A stretch of 24,000 nt of DNA, taken from contig JAXWVI010000033.1 in the NCBI GenBank assembly GCA_037245165.1, forward strand, positions 54,796 through 78,795. The letters run 5' to 3'. Below are positions 10,478-24,000 of this stretch, one piece after another. The DNA is from a bacterium (GTDB taxonomy: Bacteria; Bacillota; Clostridia; Oscillospirales; Oscillospiraceae). The translations under genes and the position numbers were made by a program. The notes below the pieces were generated by a model, which saw only the letters and a list, made by a program, of their open reading frames with translations, made no database searches and was not told the origin of the DNA. Each line of letters begins with the position of its first letter. Position 1 is the stretch's first letter.

Positions 10478-10480
10478 TAT

Positions 10481-10562: not shown

Positions 10563-10575
10563 GAAAAGTGAACAT

Positions 10576-10651
10576 CGCGGGGTAGAGCAGTTGGTAGCTC
10601 GTCGGGCTCATAACCCGGAGGCCGGTGGTTCAAGTCCATCCCCCGCAACCA
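10576..10651 (+). tRNA. initiator tRNA-fMet (anticodon CAU)
   Basis: CGCGGGG...CCCCGCAACCA gives the C1:A72 mismatch. Three consecutive G-C pairs close the anticodon stem (GGG/CCC) next to the CTCATAA loop. T-arm GGTGGTTCAAGTCCATC. All are bacterial initiator hallmarks, and the sequence is very close to E. coli tRNA-fMet. Confidence 0.92.
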
Positions 10652-10652
10652 G

Positions 10653-10690
10653 AAAGTCCTGAAACTCAAGGGTTTCAGGACTTTTCCTTT
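10653..10690 (+). terminator. rho-independent terminator of the tRNA operon
   Basis: AAAGTCCTGAAAC-tcaagg-GTTTCAGGACTTT followed by TCCTTT. Confidence 0.8.
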
Positions 10691-10890
10691 ACCCCGTTGC
10701 AATTTGCAGTTGATTTTCCCGAAGAGTCTCCTCGGGATTTTTCTTTTTTTATTCCCTCATAAAAAGTTCCTCCAATTTGTAGAACGACGATCCAGCTCGA
10801 AATGCTCTTCAAACTCCGTTTGCAATAAAGTAGGCAACCGCACAAAGTTTGCAAAATCATCTCTTGACCGGCGATCCTGCGGATGCATAG

Positions 10891-12252
10891 TCACTCTGAA
10901 AAGTTCGGCAGCGTAATGCCCGCAAATTTCGCCCGCTTCTTGGCTCCGTTGAGACGAGGTGCATTTGACAGCTTCTCCATGTCCAGATAATCCGTCATGG
11001 CGGTGATCGCGTCCCGCTCCACATCGTCATTCTTATGCAGATACTTTCTGGTCGTTTCAATAGATGAATGTCCCAGGATGCCCTGTACAATATTCAGCGG
11101 CGTCTTCTCTTCTACCAGACGGGTCGCCAATGTGTGCCTCAATGCGTGGGGATTTACCTTTTTGATCTCGCACCGTTTGGATATGGCGGCCAAGCGGATC
11201 TCAAAGGACTTGGGATCAATGTAAGTTCCAGCTTTCGAGGGGAACAGCAGGTTATCCGGATTAGGCCAACTGGAGTGTGCCAGCGTGAAGATATGCCGCA
11301 CCAGCAGTTCGCACAGCCCATCAGAAATCGCGATCTCCCGGTTTGAGCTTTTCGTCTTAGGCGTACTCTGTACAATAAGATGGGTCTTTTTCTCCGGGTC
11401 GTAGTTGAGAATCTTAATGTTTGGATTCTCCAGGGACAGCGCCTCGGTTTTCACCCGAATGAGATTTTTATTGATCGTAAGGGTCTGGCGCTCCAGGTTC
11501 AAATCCGAAATTTCCAGCGCCAACAGCTCTCCCACTCTGAAGCCAACGAACAAATCTGTAAGGATTGCGATACGCTGGGTTTCCTTCATGACTTCTTCAA
11601 TGAAAATCCGCATTTCATCAGGACTCAGAACACGCATCTCTTTCTGAACGACTTCCGGCCGTGTGGTACTGAGCGTCGGGTTGCCCGGCAGTTTGTACTT
11701 CCCGATGGCGTATTCAAAGAAGTCCTTTAGTATCATGTGGTGGTTCCGGATCGTCTTGGGCGAGAGGCCGCCCTTCTTCCCATCCATTCGGCCGCCGTTT
11801 AGCTGCTTGATCTGGTAGTATTCCTGTATCACATCCTGCGTGATCTGATACAACGGCATGGTGCCGAATGCTGGGCCAAAATGAGTGTTATAGGTGTCGA
11901 TGTAGCTGGCATAGGTAGAGGGCTTGCGCGTAGGAGGGGATTTATAAAGCCGAAGCCACTCCAGAAAAGCCTCCTCAAACAGTGTCTCCGATTCTATGGA
12001 ATGTCCCAGCCGCTTTTGTTCTTCTTCAAGCCGTTCTGTCTCTCGCTGCTCGTTCTCGGCCTGTGCTTTCAACGCGGCCTGCTGTGCTTCCCATTCCTCT
12101 TTGCGCTGTTTGCAGATCGCTTTCGTGCGGCCTTTGAAGGATTTCCTCTCAGGAGCGCCATTTTCCTTGCGGCCAACCGTGATCTGATAGACCCATGTGC
12201 GGTCTGAAAGCTGCCAAAAGCTGCCTTCACCATTTGAGCGTTTCTTAGCCAT
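10891..12252 (-). CDS. int: tyrosine recombinase / phage-type integrase
   Basis: C-terminal catalytic region with HALRHTLATRL and GHSSIETTRKYLH (the R..HxxR..Y set). SAM-like core-binding N-domain and a Lys/Glu-rich arm region. Start set at MAKKRSNGEGS (ATG 12252, GGAGG 5 nt upstream) rather than the track's 12264. Confidence 0.92.
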   Translation of the reverse strand: MAKKRSNGEGSFWQLSDRTWVYQITVGRKENGAPERKSFKGRTKAICKQRKEEWEAQQAALKAQAENEQRETERLEEEQKRLGHSIESETLFEEAFLEWLRLYKSPPTRKPSTYASYIDTYNTHFGPAFGTMPLYQITQDVIQEYYQIKQLNGGRMDGKKGGLSPKTIRNHHMILKDFFEYAIGKYKLPGNPTLSTTRPEVVQKEMRVLSPDEMRIFIEEVMKETQRIAILTDLFVGFRVGELLALEISDLNLERQTLTINKNLIRVKTEALSLENPNIKILNYDPEKKTHLIVQSTPKTKSSNREIAISDGLCELLVRHIFTLAHSSWPNPDNLLFPSKAGTYIDPKSFEIRLAAISKRCEIKKVNPHALRHTLATRLVEEKTPLNIVQGILGHSSIETTRKYLHKNDDVERDAITAMTDYLDMEKLSNAPRLNGAKKRAKFAGITLPNFSE

Positions 12253-12292
12253 AAATACCTCCAATTAAATACGTCATAATTGAAGATTTGGC

Positions 12293-12481
12293 TTAGTGTT
12301 TCGCAGCACCGGGATTCTCCAGCCATGCGTAAAAAGGCCCTTTCGGAATCCGGTAACTCTGACCTATTTTGATGACAGGAAAGGCTTTGCTGTGGATCAA
12401 ATTATACGCGGAGTTGGTTCCGATGTTCAGAATCTCCCGCACCTCTTTCACCGTCAATGTTTCCTGAGTCTGTTTACACAT
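12293..12481 (-). CDS. excisionase-type helix-turn-helix protein (62 aa)
   Basis: LTVKEVREILNIGTNSAYNLIHSKAFPVIKIGQSYRIPKGPFYAWLE is the MerR/Xis-like HTH_17 pattern. Start set at the ATG at 12481 with a GAGGAGG SD. It lies immediately upstream of int. Confidence 0.75.
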   Translation of the reverse strand: MCKQTQETLTVKEVREILNIGTNSAYNLIHSKAFPVIKIGQSYRIPKGPFYAWLENPGAAKH

Positions 12482-12554
12482 GATGATCCTCCTCATTGTG
12501 CTGCGGATCGAAGTTTGTTTAATTTTCAAGGTACACTTGCTGACTCATAGAACT

Positions 12555-12583
12555 ATTTTACGATAGCTCTTCGGGCATTTCAA
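12555..12583 (-). promoter_or_regulatory. putative promoter for xis-int
   Basis: Minus strand: TTGAAA (12583..12578), 17 nt, TAAAAT (12560..12555). Confidence 0.5.
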
Positions 12584-12713
12584 GTCATACCTCTTGTCTG
12601 AAGCACTTTTATTTTTAAACGTCTTCGCCGCAAAAATTTTGTCAAAATGAAGGTGCTTTCTTATTCGCTTGAATCCGGCCCATTGCAGGCATGATGGTAT
12701 TGTGCCGTCATCT

Positions 12714-13004
12714 CTATTGTTCTGGCGTCAGCATTGACTGTTCGTAAGCAAACAGCCGGCCTAGTATGCACTCCCAGCCTCGACGTGCGAAAATTTTTCC
12801 GTTTGGAGCTATTGCAGTGTACGGTTCCCAGCACTCCACTCGGCGGCCTGCTCGTTCTCTGTCCGGTGGAATACCGGAAACCTCGTATTCATGCAATCGC
12901 CGAACCGCAGAATCATAACCGTACCGTGCGGTCACAGATCCATCTTCCCACAATACCAAACTGCTCTCAAAGGAATCGTGATCTTCACTGGTATTGCCCA
13001 TCAT
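12714..13004 (-). CDS. hypothetical small protein (96 aa), in the position of Tn916 orf8
   Basis: AGGAGGGA SD 8 nt upstream of the ATG at 13004. The track's longer 142-aa version would read through the 13037..13066 terminator. It contains two copies of an RL-x-x-YE-(5 aa)-P motif (RRLHEYEVSGIPP, GRLFAYEQSMLTP). Confidence 0.55.
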   Translation of the reverse strand: MMGNTSEDHDSFESSLVLWEDGSVTARYGYDSAVRRLHEYEVSGIPPDRERAGRRVECWEPYTAIAPNGKIFARRGWECILGRLFAYEQSMLTPEQ

Positions 13005-13036
13005 GAATGCCGTCCCTCCTAATGAAAGAAAAGAAA

Positions 13037-13066
13037 TGCTCTCCGGTTTAGTAAAACCGGAGAGCA
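13037..13066 (-). terminator. bidirectional rho-independent terminator
   Basis: TGCTCTCCGGTTT-agta-AAACCGGAGAGCA, a 13-bp perfect stem with T-rich tracts on both sides. Confidence 0.75.
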
Positions 13067-13179
13067 CTCCTTTTTGACAGTCTAATGATACCATAATTGG
13101 AGGCGAAGTTACAAGCCATCTAAACCCACAAATATGGTACAACTTTCATGCAGAAAAGGCGAAGCGAACGCACAGCCAC

Positions 13180-13665
13180 TCAATTCAGCCCGGCAGTAAA
13201 GGCATACATCTCCGCAAGAGCGTCAATGGCCTTGGCTTTAATGTCCTGCACGCTCCTCACAGACACCCCGAGTTCTCGGGCCACCTGTTCCTGCGGGACT
13301 TTCTCCAGGCAGGCTTTCCGTAACACCTGCTCCTGTCGGGGCTCCAGCAGAGAAAGGTAATAGTTCAGTCTATCCTGCTCCTGTTCCAGCTTCATCAGCT
13401 GGGCGGAGATCTCCTGGAAGGTCTCGGCGTTGAGCTGCCTGGCCCGGTCCTGGTAATTCAGGGCGATGTAGAGCGTCTTGTTGGAAATATGTCCCTCCGG
13501 ACGGCCCGCGCCCTCCTGGCGCGCAAAATTCATCGCCCCGATCAGGTCTTTCTCCGTGACCCAGGCCGGGTGAGCCAGTTCATAGCGTAGCAGGGCGATC
13601 AGCCGGGCCCGCTTGTGGTAATTGTCCAGCAGTTCCAGTACGCGATTTTTCATTTCCGTATTCAT
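13180..13665 (-). CDS. sigma-70 region-4-like / ArpU-RinA-like transcriptional regulator (Tn916 orf7-like position)
   Basis: C-terminal LEPRQEQVLRKACLEKVPQEQVARELGVSVRSVQDIKAKAIDAL is a sigma region 4 (HTH) pattern. 161 aa. GAAAGGA SD. Confidence 0.65.
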   Translation of the reverse strand: MNTEMKNRVLELLDNYHKRARLIALLRYELAHPAWVTEKDLIGAMNFARQEGAGRPEGHISNKTLYIALNYQDRARQLNAETFQEISAQLMKLEQEQDRLNYYLSLLEPRQEQVLRKACLEKVPQEQVARELGVSVRSVQDIKAKAIDALAEMYAFTAGLN

Positions 13666-13680
13666 AAGTCAAAATCCTTT

Positions 13681-13724
13681 CCAGTCAAGTTTTCATCCGG
13701 GCTTCGCTGAACACCCTTGACTGG
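13681..13724. repeat. 9-bp perfect inverted repeat immediately upstream of the sigma-like gene
   Basis: CCAGTCAAG (13681..13689) and CTTGACTGG (13716..13724) separated by 26 nt, 16 nt from the start codon. It could be an operator or a leader hairpin. Confidence 0.5.
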
Positions 13725-14118
13725 GGGACCCCTGCACCTGAGAGGCCAACCAAAGCGAAAGAGGAGCCAATCCGAATGACGCGGCTCACCACGCTTCAGA
13801 TCCGCATGAAACGATACCGGGTCATCGCCTGATCGGGCAGGCGGAGGCTTTTCGGACCGGTCTGCCCGTTCCCTGCAATGGCCGCGGCAAAAGCAGAGCG
13901 CCGCCACTTTTCTTCCAGGCACGGAACACCGTGGCGCACCCAAAAGGAGGGCTCTCTCAATACGATGGATATTCTGCCCCATCGCGTACCCCTCTTCCGC
14001 TTACGCGGCCGGTACATGGCGGAAAATCGTATCCTCGCGTCCCAATGGAACAGCGGCTTGCCGGCAGAAAGCCGCCGCCCCATCGAGCATCTTCTGTCCA
14101 GCATTGAGGAATCCTGTC

Positions 14119-14163
14119 GAAAAAATCAGGCGCACATACTCCCTTTTCGGGATATGTGCGCCT
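14119..14163 (-). terminator. strong rho-independent terminator closing the RT / regulator transcription unit
   Basis: Minus strand: CAGGCGCACATA...TATGTGCGCCTG, a 12-bp perfect stem with 4 further inner pairs, followed by AUUUUUU. Confidence 0.85.
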
Positions 14164-14378
14164 GTGCGGATGACCTCATGGACTTGTCGATATTCCGTTA
14201 TTCCCTCATGCCCGGCGCATCTCCTGATCCTGCTTTTTGGCAATAAAGCATTTTAAAATTTTCTGACATAAACAGGATTATATAAGCGAAAAGGGGCGAG
14301 AGAAGGGAATAAGAGAGATGGGACAGGGGGAGATTTCGCTTTTTTTCGACATTGCTCGACCCTGCGATATAAAAACGC

Positions 14379-15068
14379 CTATCCCGCGAATCGGTATCCA
14401 ACGCCGCGAACATTTTGTATATACTCTTTGGGCGCCTGGGCCAATTTTTTCCTGAGCGCTTTGATGCTGGACTTGACTGCTTCATCCACATTGTAGTCCG
14501 CCTCATTATGCCAGACGTTGTGATAGATCTGCTCTCGTGTGAAAACCTGGCCCGGATAACTGGCCAGAAAGTACAGCACGTCAAACTCCTTTCGGGTCAG
14601 TTCCAGCCAATTCCCATTTAAGACCACCTGGCGATGGAGTGGGTCGATGGTCAATTCCATACCAAAGGACAAGGTATAGCAGCGCTTTTCTGAATACTCT
14701 GACCCCAGATAGAATTGGACAAGAGCGCGGGACTGAGCAATGAAGTGCCGTAATTCAACGGACTTCGGGACACAAACGGTTGCCCCCAGCGAGAAAAATT
14801 TGATTTCGTCCTCAACAGACTTCCCATCTGTGAGCACCAGGATCGGGACCGGTTTGGCCCTATGCATCATTTGGAGCAGTTTGTGACTGTCCACATTCTC
14901 CAGGCAGCTATCCATAATAACCAGGCAGTATCGCTGCCTGGTATAGCTGTCCAGAGCATCCGCCACGGTTAGAAAGTATTGAATGGTTGTGGTGTCGTCC
15001 TGCATGGTCTCCTGGAATCTTCTGCAAAAAGAGAAGTCGTCGCACATTAAGAGAATCTGTTTCCGCAT
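14379..15068 (-). CDS. OmpR/PhoB-family response regulator (REC + winged helix), no cognate kinase nearby
   Basis: Winged-helix region: LTRKEFDVLYFLASYPGQVFTREQIYHNVW...VKSSIKALRKKL...IQNVRGVGYRF. REC-like N-terminus with CDD, VIMDSC (putative phospho-Asp), LVLTD and VPKS. Confidence 0.85.
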   Translation of the reverse strand: MRKQILLMCDDFSFCRRFQETMQDDTTTIQYFLTVADALDSYTRQRYCLVIMDSCLENVDSHKLLQMMHRAKPVPILVLTDGKSVEDEIKFFSLGATVCVPKSVELRHFIAQSRALVQFYLGSEYSEKRCYTLSFGMELTIDPLHRQVVLNGNWLELTRKEFDVLYFLASYPGQVFTREQIYHNVWHNEADYNVDEAVKSSIKALRKKLAQAPKEYIQNVRGVGYRFAG

Positions 15069-15126
15069 CGCATAGAATTACCTCAAAAACGGAATTTTGT
15101 TATTTATTGTTAGTCAAAGCGAACTA

Positions 15127-15155
15127 AGTATAACGCTTTTGTGGTTATGGGTCAA
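15127..15155 (-). promoter_or_regulatory. putative own promoter of the OmpR-type regulator gene
   Basis: Minus strand: TTGACC (15155..15150), 17 nt, TATACT (15132..15127), about 55 nt upstream of the ATG. Confidence 0.55.
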
Positions 15156-15417
15156 GACGAATAGCAAAATTACCTACTGGTTAAGAGGGAAAAGAGCCGC
15201 TGTGCCGTAGTTTTTGAACGCACAAACGGAATCCCAGAATAAGATGACTCCTTAGAGACAAATCGGAGATTTGAGCCCTATCTAGGGGGGCGAATAGGGA
15301 AACGGGCCATTTTAGCCCGCTTCTTATAACTTTAAATAGATTGCAGGGATTTTGTTAAGACCTTGAGAAATCAACCCGGAGAGGGTTTCGCCGGGCGCTA
15401 ACACCTAAGCGTTCTTC

Positions 15418-18249
15418 CTACAATGCGTACTTTTTGATCAGATAATCAAAAAAATCCTTGGCCTCATATACCGCTTTGTCCGGGAGCTTTTGTTCTGTCA
15501 GGGCTTTTGGAATCTCCAGCCCGGAAACACCTGCCGCCACTCGGCGGAATACCACCCGGCGGTCTGCCAGCCGCAGCCGCATAATGCGGTAGCCCTGGCT
15601 GATCCACGCATTGGAGATGCAGTATTCTCTTTCCGGAGGGGTGATCGCGTGGAAGGGAAACTCCAGCTCCCAGAGCGCGGAATTCATTCCAGCGGCTTCA
15701 TCAAACCACCACGCCTCGCAAAAATAGGCTTCCCAGTCCAGACGGTCCCCGATGATCTCCTCAATGTCTGAAAAAGTCAACGTGACCGGTGAGCGGCTAC
15801 ACAGCCGGAAAAACTCCCGCAGCGGATAATAGGGGTCCTCTATCTGAGGGAATTCCGTTGCTCCCTCCAAAAGCGTGAGCACATCTATGCCGTTCTCCTC
15901 CCCCTGAACCTTCACAACGTCATAGCCGCATCGTTTATGGATGTACGCCATGTTCTGTAGTCTGCGCCCCTTTCCCGGGGCGATTTCCACTAATTCAACC
16001 TCTTGGTCCGGGAGCATGGGCCGTCCGCAGTAATAGCACCGCCCGGCCTGCCGCATCCAAACAGAGCGCCGCTGAGGCCCGCTGACCTTTTGATCGTCCC
16101 GCTGGCACCGCAGCCACAGACCATACTCCTGGTCCAGATAGGGGTGGAAACCGGTGCGGATGGCCTTGTGTTCTGTAAAGTTCAAAGCGGTCAGTCGGAG
16201 AACTTGGATGCTCTTTTTATTCTGAACGGCAAAGATATGCTCGCCCTGGTTTGTACGAAACCAGTACCGCTTGCGGATATGCTCCCACTGCCGCTTTGGA
16301 TGGAGCTGCCGCATCTTTTTGACCAGCAGGCTCTGCACTACTGTGTCGATCCGCCGGAAGGCGTCGTAGGCGTCTGTGATTCGGTGATAGTTGCCCCAGC
16401 CGGACAGCCTGCGGTTGAGACGTTGGATCAGAGTCTTCTGTGAGCCATGGAAATTCAAGATAAATTCAGACAGCCTTTGCTCAAAATCGTTGACCGCCTT
16501 CTGTGAGGGGCGGACCATCAAGACCCCATCTTTCCGCTCGTAATGACGGGAGAGGAAGTCAAACCCGACCGCAAGATGAAATACCCCGGTTTTATCCATA
16601 TTCAGTTTCAGCCCGCGTTCCGCCAGAAAATCGGTCAGCAGATCCAGCGCGGCGATCCCATCCGCCAGACTCCGCACGGATACGATCAGGTCATCGGCGT
16701 AGCGGATCAAATTCCCATTTTTGTAATCAATCTTTCCGTCTGGGTAAAGGTGCTCATAGAGGTATCGTTGAAGCCCATCCAACGTCATGTTGCCCAAGAT
16801 TGGGGAGAGCGTGGCCCCCATGGAAATGCCTTGTTCGGAGGGAAACAATTCCCCGGCAAACACAGCTCCCGCCCGCAGAAACTCCCGCAACACCTTGGTG
16901 TCCATAGGAATATGCTCTAAAAGCCATTTGTGGCTGATGGTATCATAGCAGGCTTTTACATCGGCGCGGACCACCCAATCAGGCGCATTGTCTCCTTCAA
17001 ATGCGGCGCAGATATAGGCGTGCGCGTCAAACATGGAGCGCCCCTTGCGAAAAGCGAATGATTTCCTATCTGCGGTGGATTCGGCCACCGGGTCCAGGGA
17101 GTAGGAATACAACGCCTGCATCGCTTTGTCATAGGCGGCCGGGACGTGGATGCGGCGCTCCTTCCCGCGCTCCGATACGATAATCCGGCGGTAGGGCTTG
17201 GCATGGTACCCACGGGAGGTCAGCGACAGGGCCGCGCGCATTTTCTCCGCGTCAGTCTGCCAGCGCACGCCGTCCACCCCTGCCTCGGAGTTGATCTGCA
17301 CTACATGGCGCACCGCCAAGACCTTGGCCGGAAGTGAGCGGACGAGCTGCTTTTGGAGCGCGGTCACGGCCTCACCGTCCCCGCTATATGCGGCGCGGGC
17401 CAGCCGCTGCTGAACGCGCAGGAGCTGATTCTCCATCTTGCCCCAGTCAATAGCGCGCCACATGACCGCCATATCCTCATCAGACAATTCCTTTCGCGGA
17501 GGCGCGGCTTGCAGGGTCAGGGAAATTGGGCAGTGATCGGACCCCAGAATGTCGGTGTGATGCTCCATGCTTCGGACAGAGGGAAGCAGGGCGTCGGACA
17601 CCAGGAAATAATCCAGCCGCCAGCCCCGGTTTTCCAGGCGTTTGTTCAATCGGTTGGACCACCAGGTATAGGCGCCGGTTTTTTCCGGATGGAGCGCCCG
17701 GAACACATCTACATAGCCGCGAGTCAACAGCCGTTCCATTCCCTCCCGTTCATCGGAAAGAAAGCCGGGCGGATTTTCTTCGTTGCGGAGGTTTTCGGGG
17801 TACACATCGAGATAGCTCCGCGCCACATTAAAGTCCCCGCAGAGGATGGCCGGCTTGTTCAGTCTGTCCAGAAAATCCAGCAGCGCCTGATCCCATGCAA
17901 TCCGGTAATCCAGCCGCTCGTCCGAGCTCTGGGAGTTAGGAACATACACGTTGACGATGCAAAAGGAGTCATATTCCAGTGCGATCAGCCTTCCTTCACA
18001 GTCGAGCTGGTCAATCCCAAACCCATACTGAACGGAGCGCGGTTCCTTTTTAGCCAGGATCAATGTCCCGGAATAGCCGCTTTGCTCCGCCAGATTCCAG
18101 TATTGAAGGTACTCCGGGGTATTCAGCGGGCAGTTCGTTCGTACCTCTTGGCAGCATACGATGTCCGCCCGGAGACGGGCGATGGATTTCAAAAATCCTT
18201 TGCGCTTACAGGCGGCCAGTCCGTTTACATTCCAGGAAACCAGCTTCAT
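15418..18249 (-). CDS. fusion protein: ExoIII/APE-type EEP nuclease + group II intron-type reverse transcriptase/maturase + degenerate HNH finger + unknown C-terminal domain
   Basis: Residue numbers follow the 953-aa track ORF. aa 11-256 are XthA-like: MKLVSWNVNGL, CCQEV, GDFNVA, WRLDYFLVS, GSDHCPISL. aa ~270-585 match group II RT blocks: AIDWGKMENQLLRVQQRL...LPAKVLAVRHVVQINSEAGVDGV (RT0), RRIHVPAAYDKAMQAL, FAFRKGRSMFDA, ADVKACYDTISH, QGISMGATLSPILGNMTLD, IRYADDLIV (16690..16701), LKLNMDKT, GFDFLS. X/thumb: LIQRLNRRLSGWGNYH. aa 748-784: CYYCG...VELVEI...NMAYIHKRC. aa ~815-953 form the extra domain. Start chosen at 18249 (GAGGG 7 nt upstream); the track's ATG at 18279 adds 10 aa. Confidence 0.9.
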   Translation of the reverse strand: MKLVSWNVNGLAACKRKGFLKSIARLRADIVCCQEVRTNCPLNTPEYLQYWNLAEQSGYSGTLILAKKEPRSVQYGFGIDQLDCEGRLIALEYDSFCIVNVYVPNSQSSDERLDYRIAWDQALLDFLDRLNKPAILCGDFNVARSYLDVYPENLRNEENPPGFLSDEREGMERLLTRGYVDVFRALHPEKTGAYTWWSNRLNKRLENRGWRLDYFLVSDALLPSVRSMEHHTDILGSDHCPISLTLQAAPPRKELSDEDMAVMWRAIDWGKMENQLLRVQQRLARAAYSGDGEAVTALQKQLVRSLPAKVLAVRHVVQINSEAGVDGVRWQTDAEKMRAALSLTSRGYHAKPYRRIIVSERGKERRIHVPAAYDKAMQALYSYSLDPVAESTADRKSFAFRKGRSMFDAHAYICAAFEGDNAPDWVVRADVKACYDTISHKWLLEHIPMDTKVLREFLRAGAVFAGELFPSEQGISMGATLSPILGNMTLDGLQRYLYEHLYPDGKIDYKNGNLIRYADDLIVSVRSLADGIAALDLLTDFLAERGLKLNMDKTGVFHLAVGFDFLSRHYERKDGVLMVRPSQKAVNDFEQRLSEFILNFHGSQKTLIQRLNRRLSGWGNYHRITDAYDAFRRIDTVVQSLLVKKMRQLHPKRQWEHIRKRYWFRTNQGEHIFAVQNKKSIQVLRLTALNFTEHKAIRTGFHPYLDQEYGLWLRCQRDDQKVSGPQRRSVWMRQAGRCYYCGRPMLPDQEVELVEIAPGKGRRLQNMAYIHKRCGYDVVKVQGEENGIDVLTLLEGATEFPQIEDPYYPLREFFRLCSRSPVTLTFSDIEEIIGDRLDWEAYFCEAWWFDEAAGMNSALWELEFPFHAITPPEREYCISNAWISQGYRIMRLRLADRRVVFRRVAAGVSGLEIPKALTEQKLPDKAVYEAKDFFDYLIKKYAL

Positions 18250-18270
18250 GGGGCATCCCTCATTTCCTGT

Positions 18271-18428
18271 ATATTCCATCTTCTTTTATCATAACGCATG
18301 ATGCGACTAAGGCCAAATAGAAATGCAAAAAATGACAATCCCATATTCCAGACAGCTCATGCCAGGGTGCATATATGGTTTGTCCAACGTTACATAGAAT
18401 GGTACTTCTCCTTCTCAAGCATATTCCA
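18271..18428 (-). repeat. three direct copies of TGGAATAT (minus-strand sense) in the RT upstream region
   Basis: ATATTCCA occurs on the plus strand at 18271..18278, 18343..18350 and 18421..18428, spaced 72 and 78 nt. The two distal copies share extended context: TGA(G/C)CTG..TGGAATATG. Confidence 0.6.
18288..18316 (-). promoter_or_regulatory. weak candidate promoter for the nuclease-RT gene
   Basis: Minus strand: TTGGCC (18316..18311), 17 nt, TATGAT (18293..18288). It would place the TSS near 18281, which favours the 18249 start. Confidence 0.3.
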
Positions 18429-18581
18429 CAGCAGTCAAAGCGCCAAGAGCGGTCGGAACGTCCTGTACCGCTACGGGTATTAAGAAGTGCTGCGGTTGGT
18501 AGCCTGGATGGGGAGGCGGCCTATAGTGTCCGCTGACGATCTGGCGGCCAAATGCGCCGCCCATACTGTAGCGCCGATGCC

Positions 18582-18610
18582 GTGACAAGCCGGAAAACCT
18601 ATGATATGAT
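18582..18610 (+). promoter_or_regulatory. putative promoter of the DUF4317 / IreB-like pair
   Basis: GTGACA (18582..18587), 17 nt, TATGAT (18605..18610). The 5' UTR would be about 47 nt. GAGG lies 8 nt before the ATG at 18665. Confidence 0.5.
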
Positions 18611-18664
18611 AACAACCAGAGCGGTCTGATCCGCACCAAATTTTGTACGAGCGAGGCAAGGACC

Positions 18665-19792
18665 ATGAATCAGAAAGAACTCAGCGAACTGCGCCGCCGG
18701 TTTCGCCCGGAAAAGAGCGCCATCAGCCATATTTATGGCTGCTACGTCAATGGAAGCCGGGAGATCATCTCCTATCTGGATGAGCCTATGGGCATGATGC
18801 CGCAGGAGGAGGCCGAGAAATACCTGGGCCTCTTGAGAAAAGCCCTTTCCGGGACGCTTGGCCGGAATCTTGTAGACATTGTATTCTCGACTCAGCAGGT
18901 CATGGACAGCGACGAACACCGCTTTCTGATGGGACTGCGGGATTCCCAACTGAAGGATGGGGCCCTCCGTCAGTCGTTCTATGATAAAGTTATCGCCTCT
19001 CTGGATATGGACGGCAGCAATTACCTGATCCTTCTGGCCCATGACGCATACGATGTCCCCTATAAGGGCCGGGACGGCGAACTACAGGATGACGCATCGG
19101 ACACCGTCTTTTCCTATATCATCTGCTGTGTCTGCCCAGTCAAGGATGGTAAGTTGGAACTGGGCTTTTTCTCCGGCGAAAATGAATTCCATAGCTGCGC
19201 GGCAAATCAGATCGTAGCTCCGCCAGAGTTGGGATTTCTCTTTCCGGCCTTCGACGACCGGGCGGCGAACATCTATAATGCTCTGCTCTATTCTAAAAAA
19301 GCGGACCAGCTCCATCAGGAATTCATCAATGCGGTATTCCGTACAGAGCCACCGCTGTCCGCGGCGGAACAGCGGGAGGCGTTTGAGGGGGCGCTGACTG
19401 GTGCGTTGGAGGATGCCTGCAGCATAGAAGTAGTACAGGCAGTTTATGAGCGTCTGCGGGATCAGATTGTTCAGCACAAGGAAACCAAGGACCCGGAGCC
19501 GCTGGCCCTCACCGCCGGCGATATTGGGAATATCCTGCGGGACTGCTCCGTACCGGAGGAACGGGTGTCCGCGTTCCTGGAACGGTGTGGAGAACGGCTG
19601 GGCGCCAACGTCGTACTCAACCCAGTGAATCTCATCGAGAGCGGAAAATTTGAGGTGGAAACAGCAGACGCCAAGCTGTCTCTTGACCCGGAGCATAGTT
19701 ATTTGCTGGAGATGCGGGTCATTGATGGGCGTCAATACCTGCTGTTTCCGGCAGACAGTGTGACAGTCAATGGGCTGCCGGTCCACACATAG
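18665..19792 (+). CDS. DUF4317-family protein (375 aa; family name from memory)
   Basis: The N-terminus MNQKELSELRRRFRPEKSAISHIYGCYVNGSREII matches my recollection of Clostridia DUF4317 proteins (M..KE..E.K..F.PE...I..I.GCYV). Codon usage is clean and there is no competing ORF. Confidence 0.75.
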   Translation: MNQKELSELRRRFRPEKSAISHIYGCYVNGSREIISYLDEPMGMMPQEEAEKYLGLLRKALSGTLGRNLVDIVFSTQQVMDSDEHRFLMGLRDSQLKDGALRQSFYDKVIASLDMDGSNYLILLAHDAYDVPYKGRDGELQDDASDTVFSYIICCVCPVKDGKLELGFFSGENEFHSCAANQIVAPPELGFLFPAFDDRAANIYNALLYSKKADQLHQEFINAVFRTEPPLSAAEQREAFEGALTGALEDACSIEVVQAVYERLRDQIVQHKETKDPEPLALTAGDIGNILRDCSVPEERVSAFLERCGERLGANVVLNPVNLIESGKFEVETADAKLSLDPEHSYLLEMRVIDGRQYLLFPADSVTVNGLPVHT

Positions 19793-19894
19793 AAGAAGCT
19801 GGAAGCGAAAGAGTAACAGTGAAACAGAAGGAGAACACGGAAGCCATATCACTTTAGCAGGAGATAGGGATACGAAAGAGAGTAGACGGGTAAT

Positions 19895-20116
19895 ATGACA
19901 GACATCGAACGGTTAAATTTTATATATGCGGCGCTTCAAGAGCGTGGCTATGCGCCAATCAGTCAAATTGTTGGTTTTTTGCTGTCTGGGGACCCAACCT
20001 ACATCACAAACCACAATGGAGCCCGAGCCATAGCTGGTCAAATTAACCGTTCCGAAATTCTGACAGAAATCGTTGGCGATTATATAAGTCATCATTGCCA
20101 TAGTCAAACACAATGA
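19895..20116 (+). CDS. ireB: IreB-family (UPF0297) small regulatory protein, 73 aa
   Basis: ALQERGYAPISQIVGFLLSGDPTYITNHNGARAIAGQINRSEILTEIVGDYI matches the IreB core (EKGYNP.NQI.GYLLSGDP.YIT.H..AR). The N-terminus is shorter than in typical IreB. Confidence 0.7.
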   Translation: MTDIERLNFIYAALQERGYAPISQIVGFLLSGDPTYITNHNGARAIAGQINRSEILTEIVGDYISHHCHSQTQ

Positions 20117-20215
20117 ATTGAAAAATACAGGAAATCTCCTGTATCAAAGTAATATGGCGCAGATGTCGATATGTTCTTTCCGTTGCTTCAAATAAGAGTT
20201 GCTGAACGAAAAAAA

Positions 20216-20241
20216 GCGGGGAGGGCGATTGCCCTCCCCGC
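20216..20241 (-). terminator. rho-independent terminator of the minus-strand element operon (the hairpin also faces ireB)
   Basis: GCGGGGAGGGC-gatt-GCCCTCCCCGC, an 11-bp stem. On the minus strand it is followed by UUUUUUU. It starts 15 nt after the stop at 20257. Confidence 0.85.
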
Positions 20242-20256
20242 ACGAAACCGGGACCA

Positions 20257-21279
20257 TTATGCGGCGAGATCTATCGTCTGCTGCATAGGGTCCTTTTTTC
20301 CTTTCTGCGTCTTTTTTTGTGCCCGGAGACTATTGGCACGGAGCTGAAGCTCCTGTGCCAAGAACTTCAGCGTGGAGAACTCGTCGTCCAGCCCGTTCAG
20401 CTCCTGGCGCAGCACCGCTTCATAGTGCCGCTTGCGCTCCTCCAGAGCCTGCACCTTCAGTACCCACCGGTCCATCACCGCGGGGCTGTTGCTTCCGCTC
20501 TTAATGAAGTAATCGCACTTGTCCTGATACTCCAGGATCTCCTTCTTTACAGCGATATAAAATTCCTGTGCCATCTTATCCCGCTGCTTGGCGTCGTCAA
20601 TGACATAGAGGCTGTTGACGGTCAGCGGCGTACCATTTCGGTTCAGCCCGCTGAGAAGCGCCAGAAAGTCCTCAAAAATATCTACCTTTTCCATATGAGT
20701 GCGGGGCACAAAGTACATATGGCCCGCGATGCTGACTTTGGTGGACTCCAAAGAGCGCAGATAATTTGCACAGATGGTTTCCACCTGCCTGCGGTTGGCG
20801 CACCGCTGGTAGAGTTCAAACAACTCCTCCGCCCGGCGGCAGCACCCGCGCACATCCACCGCATCGTCCGGCACCAGGTTATCGCAGCGGAACACGCCGT
20901 CAGATTTGTCATAACTGATATTCGCCAGTTTTTCATAGTGGTTGGTCTGCTGATTCAGTGTCTCCTTCACCAGTTCACGGGAGAGAACATTGGCCGTGCG
21001 CTTGTTGTCCCGGCAGTAGGCCAGATAGATATTGGTCTGCCCATCGGCCGTGACCGGGATGCGCTCCCGGATGTCCCCGGTGGCGCTGCGGAATGCGTCG
21101 GCCACGGACAGGCGCACCCCGCCTGAGTACGGGATGCCCATATCTTCACACAGCTTGGTGAGGGCGTCTTTTTCCACCAGAAGGTTAGCCAGGGAGAAAT
21201 AAAGGAACTTCCCCAGCACGTGCCCTTCGTCAGCCTGCGTGGCCACAATGAAATCCTGCATATCAAATACCTGTTCCAT
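20257..21279 (-). CDS. conserved hypothetical mobile-element protein (340 aa) with C-terminal coiled coil
   Basis: AGGAGGAG SD. No catalytic motif recognised. The C-terminal ~70 aa are heptad-like and Lys/Gln-rich. Confidence 0.7.
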   Translation of the reverse strand: MEQVFDMQDFIVATQADEGHVLGKFLYFSLANLLVEKDALTKLCEDMGIPYSGGVRLSVADAFRSATGDIRERIPVTADGQTNIYLAYCRDNKRTANVLSRELVKETLNQQTNHYEKLANISYDKSDGVFRCDNLVPDDAVDVRGCCRRAEELFELYQRCANRRQVETICANYLRSLESTKVSIAGHMYFVPRTHMEKVDIFEDFLALLSGLNRNGTPLTVNSLYVIDDAKQRDKMAQEFYIAVKKEILEYQDKCDYFIKSGSNSPAVMDRWVLKVQALEERKRHYEAVLRQELNGLDDEFSTLKFLAQELQLRANSLRAQKKTQKGKKDPMQQTIDLAA

Positions 21280-21288
21280 AAGCTCCTC

Positions 21289-21459
21289 CTATACTTTTAT
21301 AGCTCCTGAATACTCCGGTTTGTGGGAATCGGCCTCCGGGTCCGTTTTGCTCCGGGCGATCTCCTGATAGAAGTCGAACTGCTCAAGCCCGGGGAAGTTA
21401 TGCTCACAGCCCCGGCACCAGCCTGTGCCTCTGTTTGCACAGCTGTCACATTTTTTCAT
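21289..21459 (-). CDS. unlisted 56-aa CxxC...CxxC zinc-ribbon-like protein
   Basis: MKKCDSCANRGTGWCRGCEHNFPGLEQFDFYQEIARSKTDPEADSHKPEYSGAIKV. It starts 13 nt after the upstream stop. Its own stop overlaps the SD of the 20257..21279 gene. It is below the 60-aa track cutoff. Confidence 0.5.
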   Translation of the reverse strand: MKKCDSCANRGTGWCRGCEHNFPGLEQFDFYQEIARSKTDPEADSHKPEYSGAIKV

Positions 21460-21474
21460 ACTCCCGTTCCCGCC

Positions 21475-22089
21475 TTATGTGTGAATGGAGTAATGGGCTG
21501 TTTTCAGGTCCTCCTGGCCGTGGAGGATCAGACCTCCACAGATTCCGGGCTGCCCACTCAGGATCTCCCGGAAGAAAAAGCTGTACGGCACATAGTCGCT
21601 GTAAAAATGGATCGTTCCGCCGCTTTTCCATTGAAAATGGTCCCGCAGAAATCGGGCCAGCTTACGGCGCACCAGTTTGTTTGCCGCCACCTCCCGAATG
21701 GTCTGCCCCCCGCAGAAAATCAGCCTGGGGGACAGGTTTTCTTCTGAGGATAGCACGCTCCACTGTTCACCTTCCGCGGCGTTGTGCAGGAAGCGGACGA
21801 ACGCCTCATAGGGAATCGTCACCGCCTCCGTCCAGCCAGTCAGGTGGTCGTTGGTACAGTTCATCCAGCTGAAGCGGACCTGGAGCTCTCCACGGGCTAC
21901 ATTCCGCCGAAATTCAGCAAAATCAGGAAAATTACTGACCACTACCACCGGGTCGTACAAGCCATCCAGTTTTTCCAGGCTGTTGCGCGGGATGTAAAAT
22001 GCGGTTGGCGACTTTTTTGCCTGGGAGATCGTGCGGAATAACAGGTATTGATCTTCCGCTTTGATTTTTACAAGCGTTCTTGACTTCAT
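21475..22089 (-). CDS. hypothetical protein (204 aa)
   Basis: Start trimmed to MKSRTLVKIKAEDQY (ATG 22089, GAGGTGA SD 7 nt upstream). The track's 74 extra N-terminal codons lack an SD. Confidence 0.65.
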   Translation of the reverse strand: MKSRTLVKIKAEDQYLLFRTISQAKKSPTAFYIPRNSLEKLDGLYDPVVVVSNFPDFAEFRRNVARGELQVRFSWMNCTNDHLTGWTEAVTIPYEAFVRFLHNAAEGEQWSVLSSEENLSPRLIFCGGQTIREVAANKLVRRKLARFLRDHFQWKSGGTIHFYSDYVPYSFFFREILSGQPGICGGLILHGQEDLKTAHYSIHT

Positions 22090-22238
22090 TTTATATTCAC
22101 CTCGTATAATCATTTTAGGCCGTTCGGTTCTGTGATACGGGTAGGTCACCCGCCTATGTATTACCGCATCATGATTGTTGAGCCTCAAATCCCCCGGCCG
22201 TAATTCCGTACTGGCCCACAGTTGAAGCGGAACAGGCT

Positions 22239-22580
22239 TCACTCGGATGCCGTCGCTTCCGCCTGCGGCGGCCTGCCGGTTGCCAGCCATGCTTTCCAGC
22301 ACGACTGGCAATCTTGTTCACAGCAGGAAAAGTCGCCAAGTTCGAGCGGGAACGGTGGACAGGCGCCGCAGATCAACTGTGCTATATGCTCCGCATCCAT
22401 GTTCGGTGCCCGGAGCATAACAAGCCCGGGGCAGTCTGATTTTGCCGGACATTCTCCCGGCCCCAGCACTAACTCAATGACGCGCTCCATCGCCTCGGCA
22501 AATGCCTTTCGAGGGATAGAACTGCGATACCGCTCCAGCACGGAACTGGTGATCTGGATGATCTCGTTGGACTTATTCAT
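22239..22580 (-). CDS. hypothetical Cys-rich protein (113 aa)
   Basis: Its start overlaps the upstream gene's stop (ATGAATAA at 22573..22580). It has seven Cys, including CGAC and CCEQDCQSC. Confidence 0.55.
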   Translation of the reverse strand: MNKSNEIIQITSSVLERYRSSIPRKAFAEAMERVIELVLGPGECPAKSDCPGLVMLRAPNMDAEHIAQLICGACPPFPLELGDFSCCEQDCQSCWKAWLATGRPPQAEATASE

Positions 22581-23151
22581 TCCTGTTTACCCCTTCTGTA
22601 TCCACAGGAACTGTTATGGCCGGCTTGAGCGGCCGCATCTCTTCATAGAGTTCCTGCCGGCGCTTTTCTGAAATGAGGTCCAACTGCCGGGCGAGGTCAA
22701 TAGAGCCGATGTGTGACCAGTACCACGCCAAGCGTGATGCCTCTGAAGCGCCCGGATTTTTGATGCTCCGGCTTGCCTCCTGCTGCATGGCAGCTAAGAG
22801 GGTTTCAATATTCGTTCCGTTCTCCGCCCACGCGCTGCCGCATGTGGGGCAGTATTGGAACGGCGGCAATGAGGCGTTACATACCGGACAGGGCTCACCC
22901 TCCTCCAATTGGTAAAGCACTACAGCATCTCCGGGATCTTCGTCCATCATATCCAGGCAACCGTTGCCGCCCATCGTCACCTCCGTACAGTCGAGGAGGA
23001 TGACATAGCGGCCGACCCAGCACTGCCGGTCTCCATAATGCAGAGTATCGGTGATCTCAGGGAGCGCCAATTTCCCGCGTTTCTTTTTGATGACAACGCA
23101 CGGGATGCCTTGGTAGTCATAGTCACGGTTAATGCTAATTCCGCGTTTCAT
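22573..23151 (-). CDS. hypothetical protein with central zinc ribbon (192 aa)
   Basis: GAGAGGAG SD. CPVC-(11 aa)-CPTC motif. Acidic patch MMDEDPGD. Confidence 0.65.
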   Translation of the reverse strand: MKRGISINRDYDYQGIPCVVIKKKRGKLALPEITDTLHYGDRQCWVGRYVILLDCTEVTMGGNGCLDMMDEDPGDAVVLYQLEEGEPCPVCNASLPPFQYCPTCGSAWAENGTNIETLLAAMQQEASRSIKNPGASEASRLAWYWSHIGSIDLARQLDLISEKRRQELYEEMRPLKPAITVPVDTEGVNRNE

Positions 23152-23295
23152 ACGATATTCTCCTCTCGTATAATAAGATTTGCAGACAATTTTAAGTGCA
23201 TTTGCTTAGTTCACTCAGAGAAGTCAGCAGGCTTTGAGATGCCCGTGACACAATAGCTGTAGGACAGCAGGGCCAAGCTCTATCATTCCTCGTTA

Positions 23296-23997
23296 TTACA
23301 TGGTGGCTGCCCGGCTGAGGAAGTAATCGTCCACTCCCTTATAGGCTGGGTTCCATGTATATTTGGAATAGCGTATGCCGGGGAGCTTCTGTACCTCCCG
23401 GCGCATGGTCTGAATGGCGCTGCGCACCTGCTGGTTGGTGTTCTGGTCCATGTCCATGGCCTCCACCACCTCCCGCACGTCAAGGGACCGCAGGGCTGCC
23501 GTCAGGCCGCCCAGGGCGTTGACGCCGCCGATACAGACGAAGAGGGCGTCGCCCGCCAGAAAACTGGCCACATCCCCTTTCAGCGGCCCTTCCGTCAGAA
23601 AGGCCCGCTTGCTGCTGGTGTCCCCGGTGATATGCACCCAGGAATAGCTTCGGGTGCCGCCTGGCATATTGCGGCTGGAAAGCCAGCGGTATTTCCGCTC
23701 GGGTTGCTCCTCTTGATCCAGGCGGATTTTCAAGCCCTGAATCAGCCCATTCTTGTCCCGGACTGGGATGAGAAATCCGTTGGGGCCGCTCAGGGTCCAC
23801 TCACCGTAATAGGTGCGGAAACCCGGCAGACCCAGCAGGTCATGGCCGCCGGCGCGGAGCAGGGAGGCAAGTAACCGCCGTCCCCGGTCCGTCTCCGGCA
23901 TACTGCGGTATTGATTCTGCTCAATACGCGCTTCAGACAGCCCCCGCTCCAACAGGTTTTCCCTGTGCTTGGGGAGCAGCGTCAGATAATCCAGCAT
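23296..23997 (-). CDS. Toprim / DUF3854-like domain protein (primase-associated in conjugative elements); may extend beyond the window
   Basis: GFLIPVRDKNGLIQGLKIRLD...KYRWLSS...FLTEGPLKGDVASFL...VVEAMDMD resembles the Toprim-like DUF3854 pattern (IPV.D..G...G.QIR...KY.W.SS...ITEG.LKA). The listed Met is 3 nt from the window edge. Confidence 0.6.
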   Translation of the reverse strand: MLDYLTLLPKHRENLLERGLSEARIEQNQYRSMPETDRGRRLLASLLRAGGHDLLGLPGFRTYYGEWTLSGPNGFLIPVRDKNGLIQGLKIRLDQEEQPERKYRWLSSRNMPGGTRSYSWVHITGDTSSKRAFLTEGPLKGDVASFLAGDALFVCIGGVNALGGLTAALRSLDVREVVEAMDMDQNTNQQVRSAIQTMRREVQKLPGIRYSKYTWNPAYKGVDDYFLSRAATM

Positions 23998-24000
23998 TTC

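Follow-up and report, generated by a model that had tools for sequence, protein, structure and literature searches.

Do the four genes in the accessory slot of an integrative element of gut Clostridia work as one system, or are they passengers that arrived independently? We addressed this question for a stretch of 24,000 nucleotides (nt) from an Oscillospiraceae genome (GenBank assembly GCA_037245165.1, contig JAXWVI010000033.1, positions 54,796 to 78,795; hereafter the window). The slot, at 14119-20241, lies between integrase, excisionase and sigma-like genes (10891-13665) and genes for DUF6744, DUF4120-like and DUF3854-like proteins (20257-23997). It encodes an OmpR-type response regulator and a fusion of a nuclease with a reverse transcriptase (RT) on the minus strand, followed by a DUF4317 protein and an IreB-like protein on the plus strand. 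A first-pass annotation had put these four genes, on these strands and in this order, between the recombination and regulation end of the element and its replication/transfer-type genes. Pfam matches bore out this layout, with the start of the RT gene corrected to 18249. We conclude that the interval is very probably a variable slot holding three separately acquired, separately transcribed cargo modules rather than one four-gene system. The first module would be the nuclease-RT fusion with a predicted promoter of its own. The second appears to be an orphan OmpR-type regulator that has a conserved predicted promoter and a terminator to itself and is linked with the RT in just the closest clade and one distant lineage, and the third a 1.5-kb unit of DUF4317 and a truncated IreB-like gene, which has its own predicted promoter and is placed between the terminator of DUF6744 and the promoter of the RT.

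We compared 47 RT loci, which fall into 28 lineages at ≥95% nucleotide identity, by tblastn and phmmer with the window proteins, and assessed a further lineage (L137) from its Pfam table alone. DUF4317 and IreB genes lay upstream of the RT in 1 of the 18 lineages whose upstream flank reached 1.5 kb or more, and this lineage is the window's own, seen as copies that are 98-99% identical. Downstream flank of 1 kb or more was available for 22 lineages, and 4 of them had an OmpR-type regulator there: three make up a single clade with RT identity of at least 84%, and the fourth is L001. None of the three partners accompanied the RT in 24 of the 28 lineages. Its neighbours elsewhere include SpaA-type giant surface proteins (pilin-like giants), ALP/ParA partition genes with a sigma factor, and a small sigma-70 region-4 protein with serine recombinases. 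In L137 they are YpsA/DprA-like, sigma region-4, FHA-FtsK and type III restriction-modification genes, and in further lineages Rep_1, Dam (L111), YhcG nuclease (L109) and radical-SAM genes. The first-pass annotation had proposed that the four genes form one functional system and had named beforehand, as the observation that would speak against this, RT homologues with unrelated neighbours. Such neighbours are what the 28 lineages have, and linkage of the RT with DUF4317 and IreB was confined to near-identical copies of this one element.

Close relatives of the element locate the joints between modules. The sister element L081 (RT 88% identical in amino acids, integrase 99%, sigma-like protein only 60%, with the same transfer RNA end and backbone) is collinear with the window over 10477-15068, 15415-18298 and 20210-24000 (blastn). 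In place of a 1.9-kb block at 18299..20209 (1,911 nt), comprising DUF4317-IreB and about 280 nt of unmatched sequence, L081 has 42 nt. It keeps the RT and OmpR genes without DUF4317 or IreB, and its RT promoter stands almost directly after the DUF6744 terminator. We also considered DUF4317 and IreB as chromosomal genes flanking a smaller insertion; this was ruled out, because their flanks, the RT and DUF6744 genes, are element DNA and are adjacent in L081. L095 and L096 (RT 89% identical) have in common with the window only 13057-15193 and 15412-18350, that is, the sigma-like gene, a small open reading frame (ORF), the OmpR gene and the RT gene with 71 nt upstream. Upstream of this segment they carry genes for an FtsX permease, a response regulator and a histidine-kinase-type ATPase protein, and downstream serine recombinases in place of the tyrosine integrase. 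Finally, seven IMG/VR loci (L141-L147) have a DUF3854-DUF4120-DUF6744 backbone 70-77% identical to that of the window, then a sigma-like protein (38%) and the 142-amino-acid (aa) protein p142 (66%), with three large recombinase-sized ORFs after p142 in L141. Their slot between DUF6744 and the sigma-like gene measures 1.4-2.1 kb and contains none of the four genes; in L141, the one locus inspected, it held four small ORFs, two of which were scanned and had no Pfam match. The backbone therefore exists without the cassette in related elements, and the earlier view of 14119-20241 as an accessory slot, with no backbone gene among the four, agrees with these loci.

The converse arrangement, DUF4317 and IreB without the other two genes, occurs in L131-L135, where the pair stands without the fusion RT or an OmpR gene. 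In L131, DUF4317 is 90% identical to that of the window and is followed by a 72-aa IreB-like gene, in a conjugative element with NYN, NlpC/P60 and TraG/VirB4-like genes. Nucleotide homology between L131 and the window is limited to 18580-20087, which corresponds to the predicted promoter and the two genes. The assignment of DUF4317 and IreB to an RT system is contradicted by this pair, which travels at 90% identity in an unrelated conjugative element that has no fusion RT.

The two halves of the cassette had also been thought to share one long control region. A long divergent intergenic region does exist (18280-18664, 385 nt), but it is composite, with recombination joints, two separate predicted promoters and no shared repeats. 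The predicted RT promoter lies on the minus strand at 18316-18288 (TTGGCC-17-TATGAT) and is conserved in L096, with TTGGAT-17-TATGAT in L081. The predicted DUF4317 promoter lies on the plus strand at 18582-18610 (GTGACA-17-TG-TATGAT), where the L131 homology starts at 18580. Joints at 18298 (against L081), 18350 (against L096) and 18580 (against L131) divide the region into about 70 nt of RT promoter, about 230 nt lacking homologues and about 85 nt of the DUF4317 module. For the middle segment, 18351-18579, comparison with L081, L096 and L131 gave no homologue and Rfam no match, and none of its ORFs matched Pfam, an 83-aa one on the minus strand at 18415-18666 included. A comparison of the RT-OmpR and RT-DUF4317 intergenic regions found no operator-like repeats common to both, only 10-12-mers at chance level. 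These data bear directly on the proposal of a single RT-based defence or stress system, in which OmpR would regulate, the nuclease-RT would be the effector and DUF4317 and IreB would serve as sensor or accessory. The four genes are intact together in every near-identical copy examined, their slot is bounded by terminators, and all four plausibly act on nucleic acids or in regulation. Such a system is nevertheless highly improbable in view of the reciprocal distributions of RT-OmpR (L081, L095/L096) and DUF4317-IreB (L131-L135), the 24 of 28 RT lineages without any partner, the three separate predicted promoters, the joints and missing repeats in the supposedly shared region, and PADLOC results that gave generic RT models only.

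Both strong hairpins that had been taken to bracket the cassette are real, with z scores of about -6, and each has its U-run on the minus strand. The left one (14119-14163, minus strand) has a folding energy of -29.5 kcal/mol (z -6.3) and the right one (20216-20241, minus strand) -28.8 kcal/mol (z -5.6), and none of 200 shuffles equalled either. Because its U-run is on the minus strand, the left hairpin is read as the intrinsic terminator of the OmpR unit; collinearity with L081 and L096 continues across it, so that no homology boundary falls there. The right hairpin begins 16 nt past the stop of DUF6744 (at 20257) and is kept, directly upstream of the RT promoter, in L081. Because L081 retains it without having DUF4317 or IreB, we place this hairpin outside the cassette, as the predicted intrinsic terminator of the backbone gene DUF6744 and the right edge of the slot. 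For the plus-strand IreB gene it is a tail-less hairpin at best; that gene has a weak hairpin of its own at 20124-20145 (-9.6 kcal/mol).

The regulator gene (14379..15068, minus strand) encodes an orphan OmpR-family response regulator of 229 aa (Pfam Trans_reg_C 80 bits, Response_reg 40 bits), which scores under every NCBIfam equivalog cut-off; the receiver residues Asp53, Thr80 and Lys102 are present in its translation. Domain scans of the element genes in the window (10891-23997) found no histidine kinase; the only kinase-sized gene of the window lies outside the genes scanned, beside a LytTR regulator in the chromosomal flank. A predicted sigma-70 promoter for the regulator lies on the minus strand at 15155-15127 (TTGACC-17-TATACT), and its hexamers are conserved in L096 and L081. 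Between this promoter and the RT stop, blastn breakpoints delimit a variable spacer at 15194..15411 that measures 218 nt in the window and 69 nt in L096 and gave no Rfam match; in L081, 845 nt with a 103-aa ORF among them take the place of 15069-15414 (346 nt).

The regulator and the RT could still form a genuine two-gene unit, with the regulator controlling the RT or being controlled through it, and with DUF4317 and IreB as later passengers. The series RT-OmpR-p106-sigma is collinear in three element types that have different recombinases and upstream genes. L001 (10001-13555, Oscillospiraceae bacterium 38-13), whose RT is 46% identical to that of the window and lies about 7 kb from tRNA-Leu/Met and an integrase, has a Response_reg and Trans_reg_C gene that starts 13 nt past the RT stop, the only RT-regulator pairing outside the window clade. 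However, 18 of the 22 lineages with downstream flank have no such regulator, the spacer is hypervariable (a 69-nt, 218-nt or 845-nt segment), and the regulator has its own conserved predicted promoter. OmpR-family regulators are moreover very common, the L001 protein is 36% identical over its C-terminal domain only, and the L001 RT contains one in-frame stop. We consider the two-gene unit unlikely and retain the regulator as a module of its own.

Of particular interest among the three modules is the fusion gene, at 15418..18249 on the minus strand (943 aa; the longest ORF extends to 18279, 953 codons), in whose product Pfam recognized Exo_endo_phos, RVT_N, RVT_1, GIIM and DUF7662. A conserved ATG at 18249 (MKLVSWN) is preceded by a GAGGGA ribosome-binding site, and every homologue starts there; at the upstream start at 18279 (MEYTGNEGCP...), L081 has no ATG and also a frameshift. 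Because the homologues all begin at 18249 and L081 is without the upstream ATG, the true protein is probably the one of 943 rather than 953 aa. The N-terminal domain (17512..18249, minus strand; residues 11-256) is of the ExoIII/ExoA/APE1 type of apurinic/apyrimidinic (AP) endonucleases. It matches Bacillus subtilis ExoA (5cfe) at 1.6e-68 and human APE1 at about 1e-54 in the PDB, and passes both xth equivalog cut-offs of NCBIfam (TIGR00633, 249 bits against >99; TIGR00195, 227 bits against >182.6). It is 45-50% identical to the stand-alone housekeeping xth of many Firmicutes. Conservation was scored in 22 sequences that are 45-88% identical to the window protein, and the catalytic set N17, E45, Y112, D149, N151, D223, D248 and H249 is invariant or nearly so. 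By its sequence, then, this is a bona fide exodeoxyribonuclease III domain with a complete catalytic set.

The central part comprises RVT_N, the RT motifs with YADD and the X or maturase-thumb domain (16261..17460, minus strand; residues 274-673), and D440 and the YADD residues A528, D529 and D530 are invariant in the 22 sequences. Residues 272-794 match the T.el4h intron maturase (6me0_C) at 1.4e-92 and 314 bits, over RT, X, DNA-binding (D) and endonuclease (En) domains. In the degenerate En (HNH) region (15910..16062, minus strand, from the alignment to 6me0_C), the zinc ligands C748, C751, H781 and C784 are retained and invariant in the family. The catalytic His-His pair is lost (EIHHI has become EVELVEI, with the family consensus EVxLVE), and the region has only weak matches to HNH-domain folds. 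The C-terminal DUF7662 domain (15421..15831, minus strand; Pfam 27.5 bits) covers the last ~140 residues; its AlphaFold model (predicted local distance difference test, pLDDT, 86) has helices and a beta-hairpin, and we read it as winged-helix-like. Foldseek found nothing significant for it among solved structures in the PDB (best E 0.19), and a search with the C-terminal 154 residues returned three proteins and no new architectures.

Group II intron RNA was not found around the fusion: no match at E≤1 to Rfam Intron_gpII or D1D4 in the window, and none at gathering score beside seven other family members. In the same run, Intron_gpII and D1-D4 were detected flanking an unrelated 494-aa RT of L131, which served as a positive control; this genuine group II intron, at L131 10386-13048, lies beside the NlpC/P60- and TraG/VirB4-like genes. 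Only about 350-415 nt of non-coding DNA surround the fusion ORF, a comparison of 22 representatives showed no conserved untranslated regions, and no partner RNA was seen beside the RT. At some loci the gene runs up against or into the genes next to it. The protein scores 231 bits with NCBIfam group_II_RT_mat, under the equivalog cut-off of 300. Its best PADLOC match is the generic 'RT' model (120 bits), with UG/DRT models at 68 bits or less; it falls far under the cut-offs of the NCBIfam Drt2, Drt3a and retron models, and PADLOC and NCBIfam scores are also far below CRISPR-RT models. The fusion thus reads as a free-standing RT derived from a group II intron protein that has lost the ribozyme and the catalytic histidines of HNH.

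This fusion is a large, strongly conserved and apparently undescribed family. Among the best 120 clusters (90% identity), full-length fusions account for at least 100, and these are 45-99% identical. All that were found come from chromosomal or metagenomic contigs, of gut-type Clostridia and their relatives, usually with recombinase, replication or other mobile-element genes near the RT where flanks are long enough. The full-length fusion was absent from PLSDB plasmids and INPHARED phages, in which only ordinary ltrA (34-37%) or xth turned up, and a search of IMG/VR with the RT part gave no matches. A back-translated N-terminal pattern, searched against genome contigs, recovered mostly stand-alone xth, with full-length fusions in L001-L003 only. 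An apparent 'RT-only' variant of 685 aa (P0109) proved to be a truncation at a contig edge and not a split gene. In open-access papers and bioRxiv we found no report of a bacterial fusion of ExoIII/APE with a group II-like RT, and none in reviews of bacterial RT diversity. In one copy of the element, L123, which is otherwise 98-99% identical to that of the window, 2.3 kb encoding an IstB_IS21-type ATPase (L123 10400-12712) stand where the middle of the RT should be (about residues 395-840, corresponding to window 15772-17095). Because the RT is interrupted in so close a copy, it is dispensable for persistence of the element.

Could the fusion gene itself be the mobile unit, an autonomous retrotransposon of the LINE (long interspersed nuclear element) kind that copies its own messenger RNA into nicked DNA? 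The order of an APE-type nuclease, RT and Cys/His motif is that of LINE ORF2p, such mobility would explain the scattered locations, and the neighbours vary among lineages. Homology also ends closely around the gene, 3-6 nt past the stop and 19-71 nt upstream of 18279 (49-101 nt upstream of 18249). Yet the 22 representatives have no conserved 5' or 3' untranslated sequences, tails or duplications, dispersed copies were not seen, and genes that abut or overlap their neighbours fit poorly with such a unit. RT divergence (83-85% nucleotide identity) is similar to that of the flanking backbone (83-89%), as co-inheritance predicts, and identical RT proteins recur in the same context rather than in new ones. 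Each fetched locus has a single copy, apart from a second EEP-like match of 85 residues about 2.7 kb downstream in L097, and mosaic flanks are general in these elements (integrase 99% and sigma-like protein 60% identical between the window and L081). Retrotransposition of this kind is very unlikely, and we keep the fusion as cargo of the elements that carry it.

What might the fusion do? Activities of the ExoIII family include AP-site incision, 3'-phosphodiesterase and 3'-5' exonuclease, and Escherichia coli ExoIII also acts as an RNase H. The nuclease domain may accordingly incise DNA at abasic sites or nicks, or trim blocked 3' ends, and the RT domain may extend the resulting 3'-OH on an RNA or DNA template. 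The outcome would be a nick-and-extend activity in a single polypeptide, for DNA repair, damage tolerance or defence on mobile elements. Alternatively, the ExoIII domain might clear away the RNA template, the role that RNase H has in retroviral RTs. A role in repair or damage tolerance is plausible because there are precedents in the G2L4 RT (double-strand-break repair) and in a PrimPol-RT hybrid (defence and oxidative damage), both compared below; a role in defence is equally open. It is possible, if on balance doubtful, that the family represents an undescribed class of enzyme in which an intron protein lost its ribozyme and HNH activity, recruited a housekeeping ExoIII/APE domain and so came independently to an architecture like that of LINE ORF2p, with nick- or abasic-site-primed (target-primed) synthesis on mobile elements of gut Clostridia.

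The third module begins with DUF4317 (18665..19792, plus strand; 375 aa, Pfam 421 bits). Its AlphaFold model, built from a 59-sequence alignment, is confident (pLDDT 93, predicted template-modelling (TM) score, pTM, 0.86), and the sole significant fold match in the PDB is E. coli YejK (9be2; Foldseek E 1.6e-5, prob 1.00, TM 0.47/0.51, 361 columns). There is no sequence similarity between DUF4317 and YejK, with Pfam returning DUF4317 only and with neither phmmer nor the 59-sequence profile against the PDB finding any. DUF4317 is thus predicted to have the fold of YejK/NdpA-like nucleoid-associated proteins (NAPs); we found no literature on the family in open-access papers or bioRxiv. The IreB-like gene follows after a gap of 102 nt (19895..20116, plus strand; 73 aa) and matches Pfam IreB with 85 bits (cut-off 25) over profile positions 19-77 of 78. 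With the NCBIfam model it scores 85.1 bits, under the cut-off of 91, over positions 21-80 of 81, so that about the first 20 positions are absent.

Beyond the two elements in which the DUF4317-IreB pairing is kept, it is absent beside more distant DUF4317 genes. Some of these are solitary chromosomal genes beside SMC/RecN-type ATPase, SpoIVB-type peptidase, alanine racemase and cotJ genes, one adjoins a patatin gene, and others lie in further mobile elements beside Y-family polymerase and SRAP genes; in the contexts read, neither IreB nor the fusion RT was near any of them. At L136 1114-3117, a DUF4317 gene 83% identical to that of the window lies near genes for a Y-family polymerase (IMS) and an SRAP abasic-site protein. 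At L154 3968-7134 (67% identical), IMS, a 137-aa ORF and DUF4317 follow one another in an operon-like order with an SSB gene near. These two contexts, together with the AP endonuclease-RT neighbour in the window, hint at a DNA-damage theme.

We consider module 3 most likely to be an element-borne nucleoid protein with a small partner, which by analogy would serve either in regulation or as a defence pair of NAP and partner. A stronger version of the second option makes DUF4317-IreB a NAP-sensor-plus-partner operon of the PANGU kind and the RT a separate single-gene defence RT, so that the whole slot would be a small defence island. The YejK-like fold of DUF4317, the precedent of NAP-effector abortive infection (bioRxiv 10.64898/2026.04.06.716658), the pair's retention across two different elements, and restriction-modification and nuclease genes near the RT elsewhere (type III in L137, Dam in L111, YhcG in L109) are all in keeping with it. 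On the other side, PADLOC has no match for DUF4317 or IreB and a generic RT match only for the fusion, the 102-nt gap exceeds the 40-bp criterion of that preprint, DUF4317 is most often solitary and chromosomal, and the ExoIII domain scores above the cut-off of a housekeeping equivalog model, as would suit repair no less than defence. IreB-like proteins are not known to act as toxins. We judge the defence island fairly unlikely, and return to three modules of separate origin.

Several observations weigh against this reading or the functions proposed within it. The sample comprises 28 RT lineages only, many of them on short contigs, and the promoters are known only as matches to a consensus. 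NCBI names the commonest DUF4317 variant from Flavonifractor plautii, and more than 2,300 blocks of the assembly collection contain it. The four genes stand together in each of the 25 long contigs read for this variant, and the arrangement is evidently stable within this element; because these contigs carry near-identical copies of one element, they give no independent evidence of linkage. The co-occurrence in L001 leaves room for a functional link between RT and regulator. The relation of DUF4317 to YejK is at the level of fold only (TM about 0.5), and the nick-and-extend mechanism, most likely as it seems to us, is drawn purely from anatomy.

The rest of the window fits an integrative element next to chromosomal DNA. 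Its left third holds chromosomal genes (LytTR regulator, MgtE, DUF3048 and prfB by Pfam), followed by tRNA-Leu(TAA) and tRNA-Met(CAT) at 10391-10651, directly left of the tyrosine integrase (10891-12264); homology to L081 and L001 includes both tRNAs, and the 3' end of tRNA-Met is the likely attachment site. The opposite end of the element falls beyond the window. Pfam further identified an HTH_17 excisionase (xis, 12293-12529) and the sigma region-4 protein (sigma-like, 13180-13665), with the ORF of p142 between them. A hairpin with a 20-bp stem between the p142 ORF and the sigma-like gene (13029-13074), flanked by A/T runs on both sides and conserved in L081, looks like a bidirectional terminator. 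Two minus-strand ORFs overlap in different frames at 13662-13982 (106 aa) and 13796-14104 (102 aa); the 106-aa frame is conserved at 53-93% in relatives (tblastn), and public gene calls favour the 102-aa frame. The right-hand backbone on the minus strand (20257-23997, Pfam) encodes DUF6744, a DUF4120-like protein, a 192-aa protein and a DUF3854-like protein, beyond which L081 has SMC-like ATPase, Rad52, Prok-E2_D and DUF6094 genes. The backbone genes had no PHROG matches, and relatives are entered as viral in IMG/VR. Taken together, this is probably a tRNA-Met-associated integrative element of the Flavonifractor plautii type, very common in human-gut metagenomes.

Some features recur near the RT in other lineages. 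Small sigma-70 region-4 proteins (149-161 aa) are encoded right beside it or within two genes of it in several otherwise unrelated lineages (L082 7244-7720, L137 6438-6887 and the window's 13180-13665), with no mutual homology detected by phmmer; these genes may simply mark the regulatory end of such elements. In at least two lineages (L102 4313-4798 and L137 5820-6347), YpsA/DprA-like (SLOG) genes stand upstream of the RT at a distance of no more than about 600 bp, and the ORF cluster to which the L102 gene belongs is found upstream in L104 and L106 as well. In L082, an Rfam pemK RNA motif (8027-8107, 73 bits) lies between the sigma region-4 gene and resolvase genes of the RT-bearing element.

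The slot is a textbook case of modular, recombining cargo, and two of its modules have a wider bearing. The fusion family counts more than 100 clusters (90% identity) in the top matches alone, and the element occurs in thousands of assembly blocks, the contigs sampled being largely from gut metagenomes. The fusion is a candidate single-protein nick-and-write enzyme, and it bears on how free-standing intron-derived RTs are repurposed, for repair as in G2L4 or for defence as in the DRTs, and on how the endonuclease-plus-RT arrangement of LINEs may evolve. The predicted fold link to YejK would be the first functional handle on DUF4317, an unannotated family of about 2,200 representative clusters (50% identity).

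Set against known systems, the element as a whole resembles Tn916, to which it had been likened, in having a tyrosine integrase, excisionase and sigma-like regulator at one end beside a variable slot. This likeness holds as an analogy of layout only: the slot adjoins DUF6744, DUF4120-like and DUF3854-like genes and no Tn916-type conjugation genes. The regulator has the receiver and winged-helix output of the two-component OmpR family, with no cognate kinase among the element genes scanned. The IreB-like protein has the core of enterococcal IreB (UPF0297), at 85 bits in 73 aa. Unlike IreB, it is without about the first 20 profile positions, the segment in which the phosphorylated threonines of Enterococcus faecalis IreB lie, and it sits beside DUF4317 on a mobile element rather than in the usual chromosomal context.

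For DUF4317, the nearest systems are those built on YejK and NdpA. NdpA2, carried by an integrative and conjugative element, controls transfer of PAPI-1 (PMC8565334), and PANGU systems are reported to combine YejK-like NAPs with diverse downstream effectors for abortive infection, with many operon types uncharacterised (bioRxiv 10.64898/2026.04.06.716658). DUF4317 resembles these in its predicted fold, its carriage on a mobile element and the small partner gene behind it. YejK is described as conserved among Gram-negative bacteria in PMC11229321; DUF4317 differs from it in having no sequence similarity and in belonging to Clostridia-type contexts. In contrast to PANGU, the partner is IreB-like, a type that the preprint does not name among its effector clusters, and the gap is 102 nt against an operon criterion of 40 bp.

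Three systems provide comparisons for the fusion's RT. The G2L4 RT of Pseudomonas aeruginosa takes part in repairing double-strand breaks by microhomology-mediated end joining (bioRxiv 10.1101/2022.03.14.484287; reviews PMC8632793, PMC2602772), and like G2L RTs the fusion is a single free-standing gene with no intron RNA whose RT, thumb/X and N-terminal RT extension are close to intron-encoded proteins. It differs from them in its N-terminal ExoIII domain, degenerate En and DUF7662 tail, in YADD against the YIDD of G2L4, and in its location, on gut-Clostridia mobile elements. Among solved structures, moreover, it is closest to the En-containing mobile intron protein T.el4h and not to a G2L or IIC-type RT; the comparison is by features rather than by an RT tree. 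With the T.el4h protein (PDB 6me0) itself, the fusion has RVT_N, RVT_1 and GIIM in common and a match over RT-X-D-En, whereas flanking ribozyme domains and the His-His pair of HNH are missing and N- and C-terminal domains have been added. The PrimPol-RT hybrid protein (PPRT) of E. coli is reported to act in phage defence and in a response to oxidative DNA damage (bioRxiv 10.1101/2025.09.07.674619). It likewise has a DNA-metabolism domain on the N-terminal side of its group II intron-like RT and a long C-terminal domain behind it, but the fused domain is PrimPol rather than ExoIII and the RT lineage differs.

The closest parallel in overall design is LINE-1 ORF2p, with which the fusion has in common the order of APE/ExoIII-family endonuclease, RT and C-terminal Cys/His motif in one polypeptide. 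The RT of the fusion belongs to the group II intron lineage, with best matches to bacterial group II intron proteins, and not to the non-LTR (long terminal repeat) clade, and its nuclease has about 45-50% identity with the housekeeping ExoIII of bacteria. Convergence is the most likely source of the resemblance. The LINE-like order of parts suggests, by analogy, nick-primed DNA synthesis; if this is true, the fusion would offer a model, in bacteria, for the origin of APE-type target-primed reverse transcription from an RT of the intron kind.

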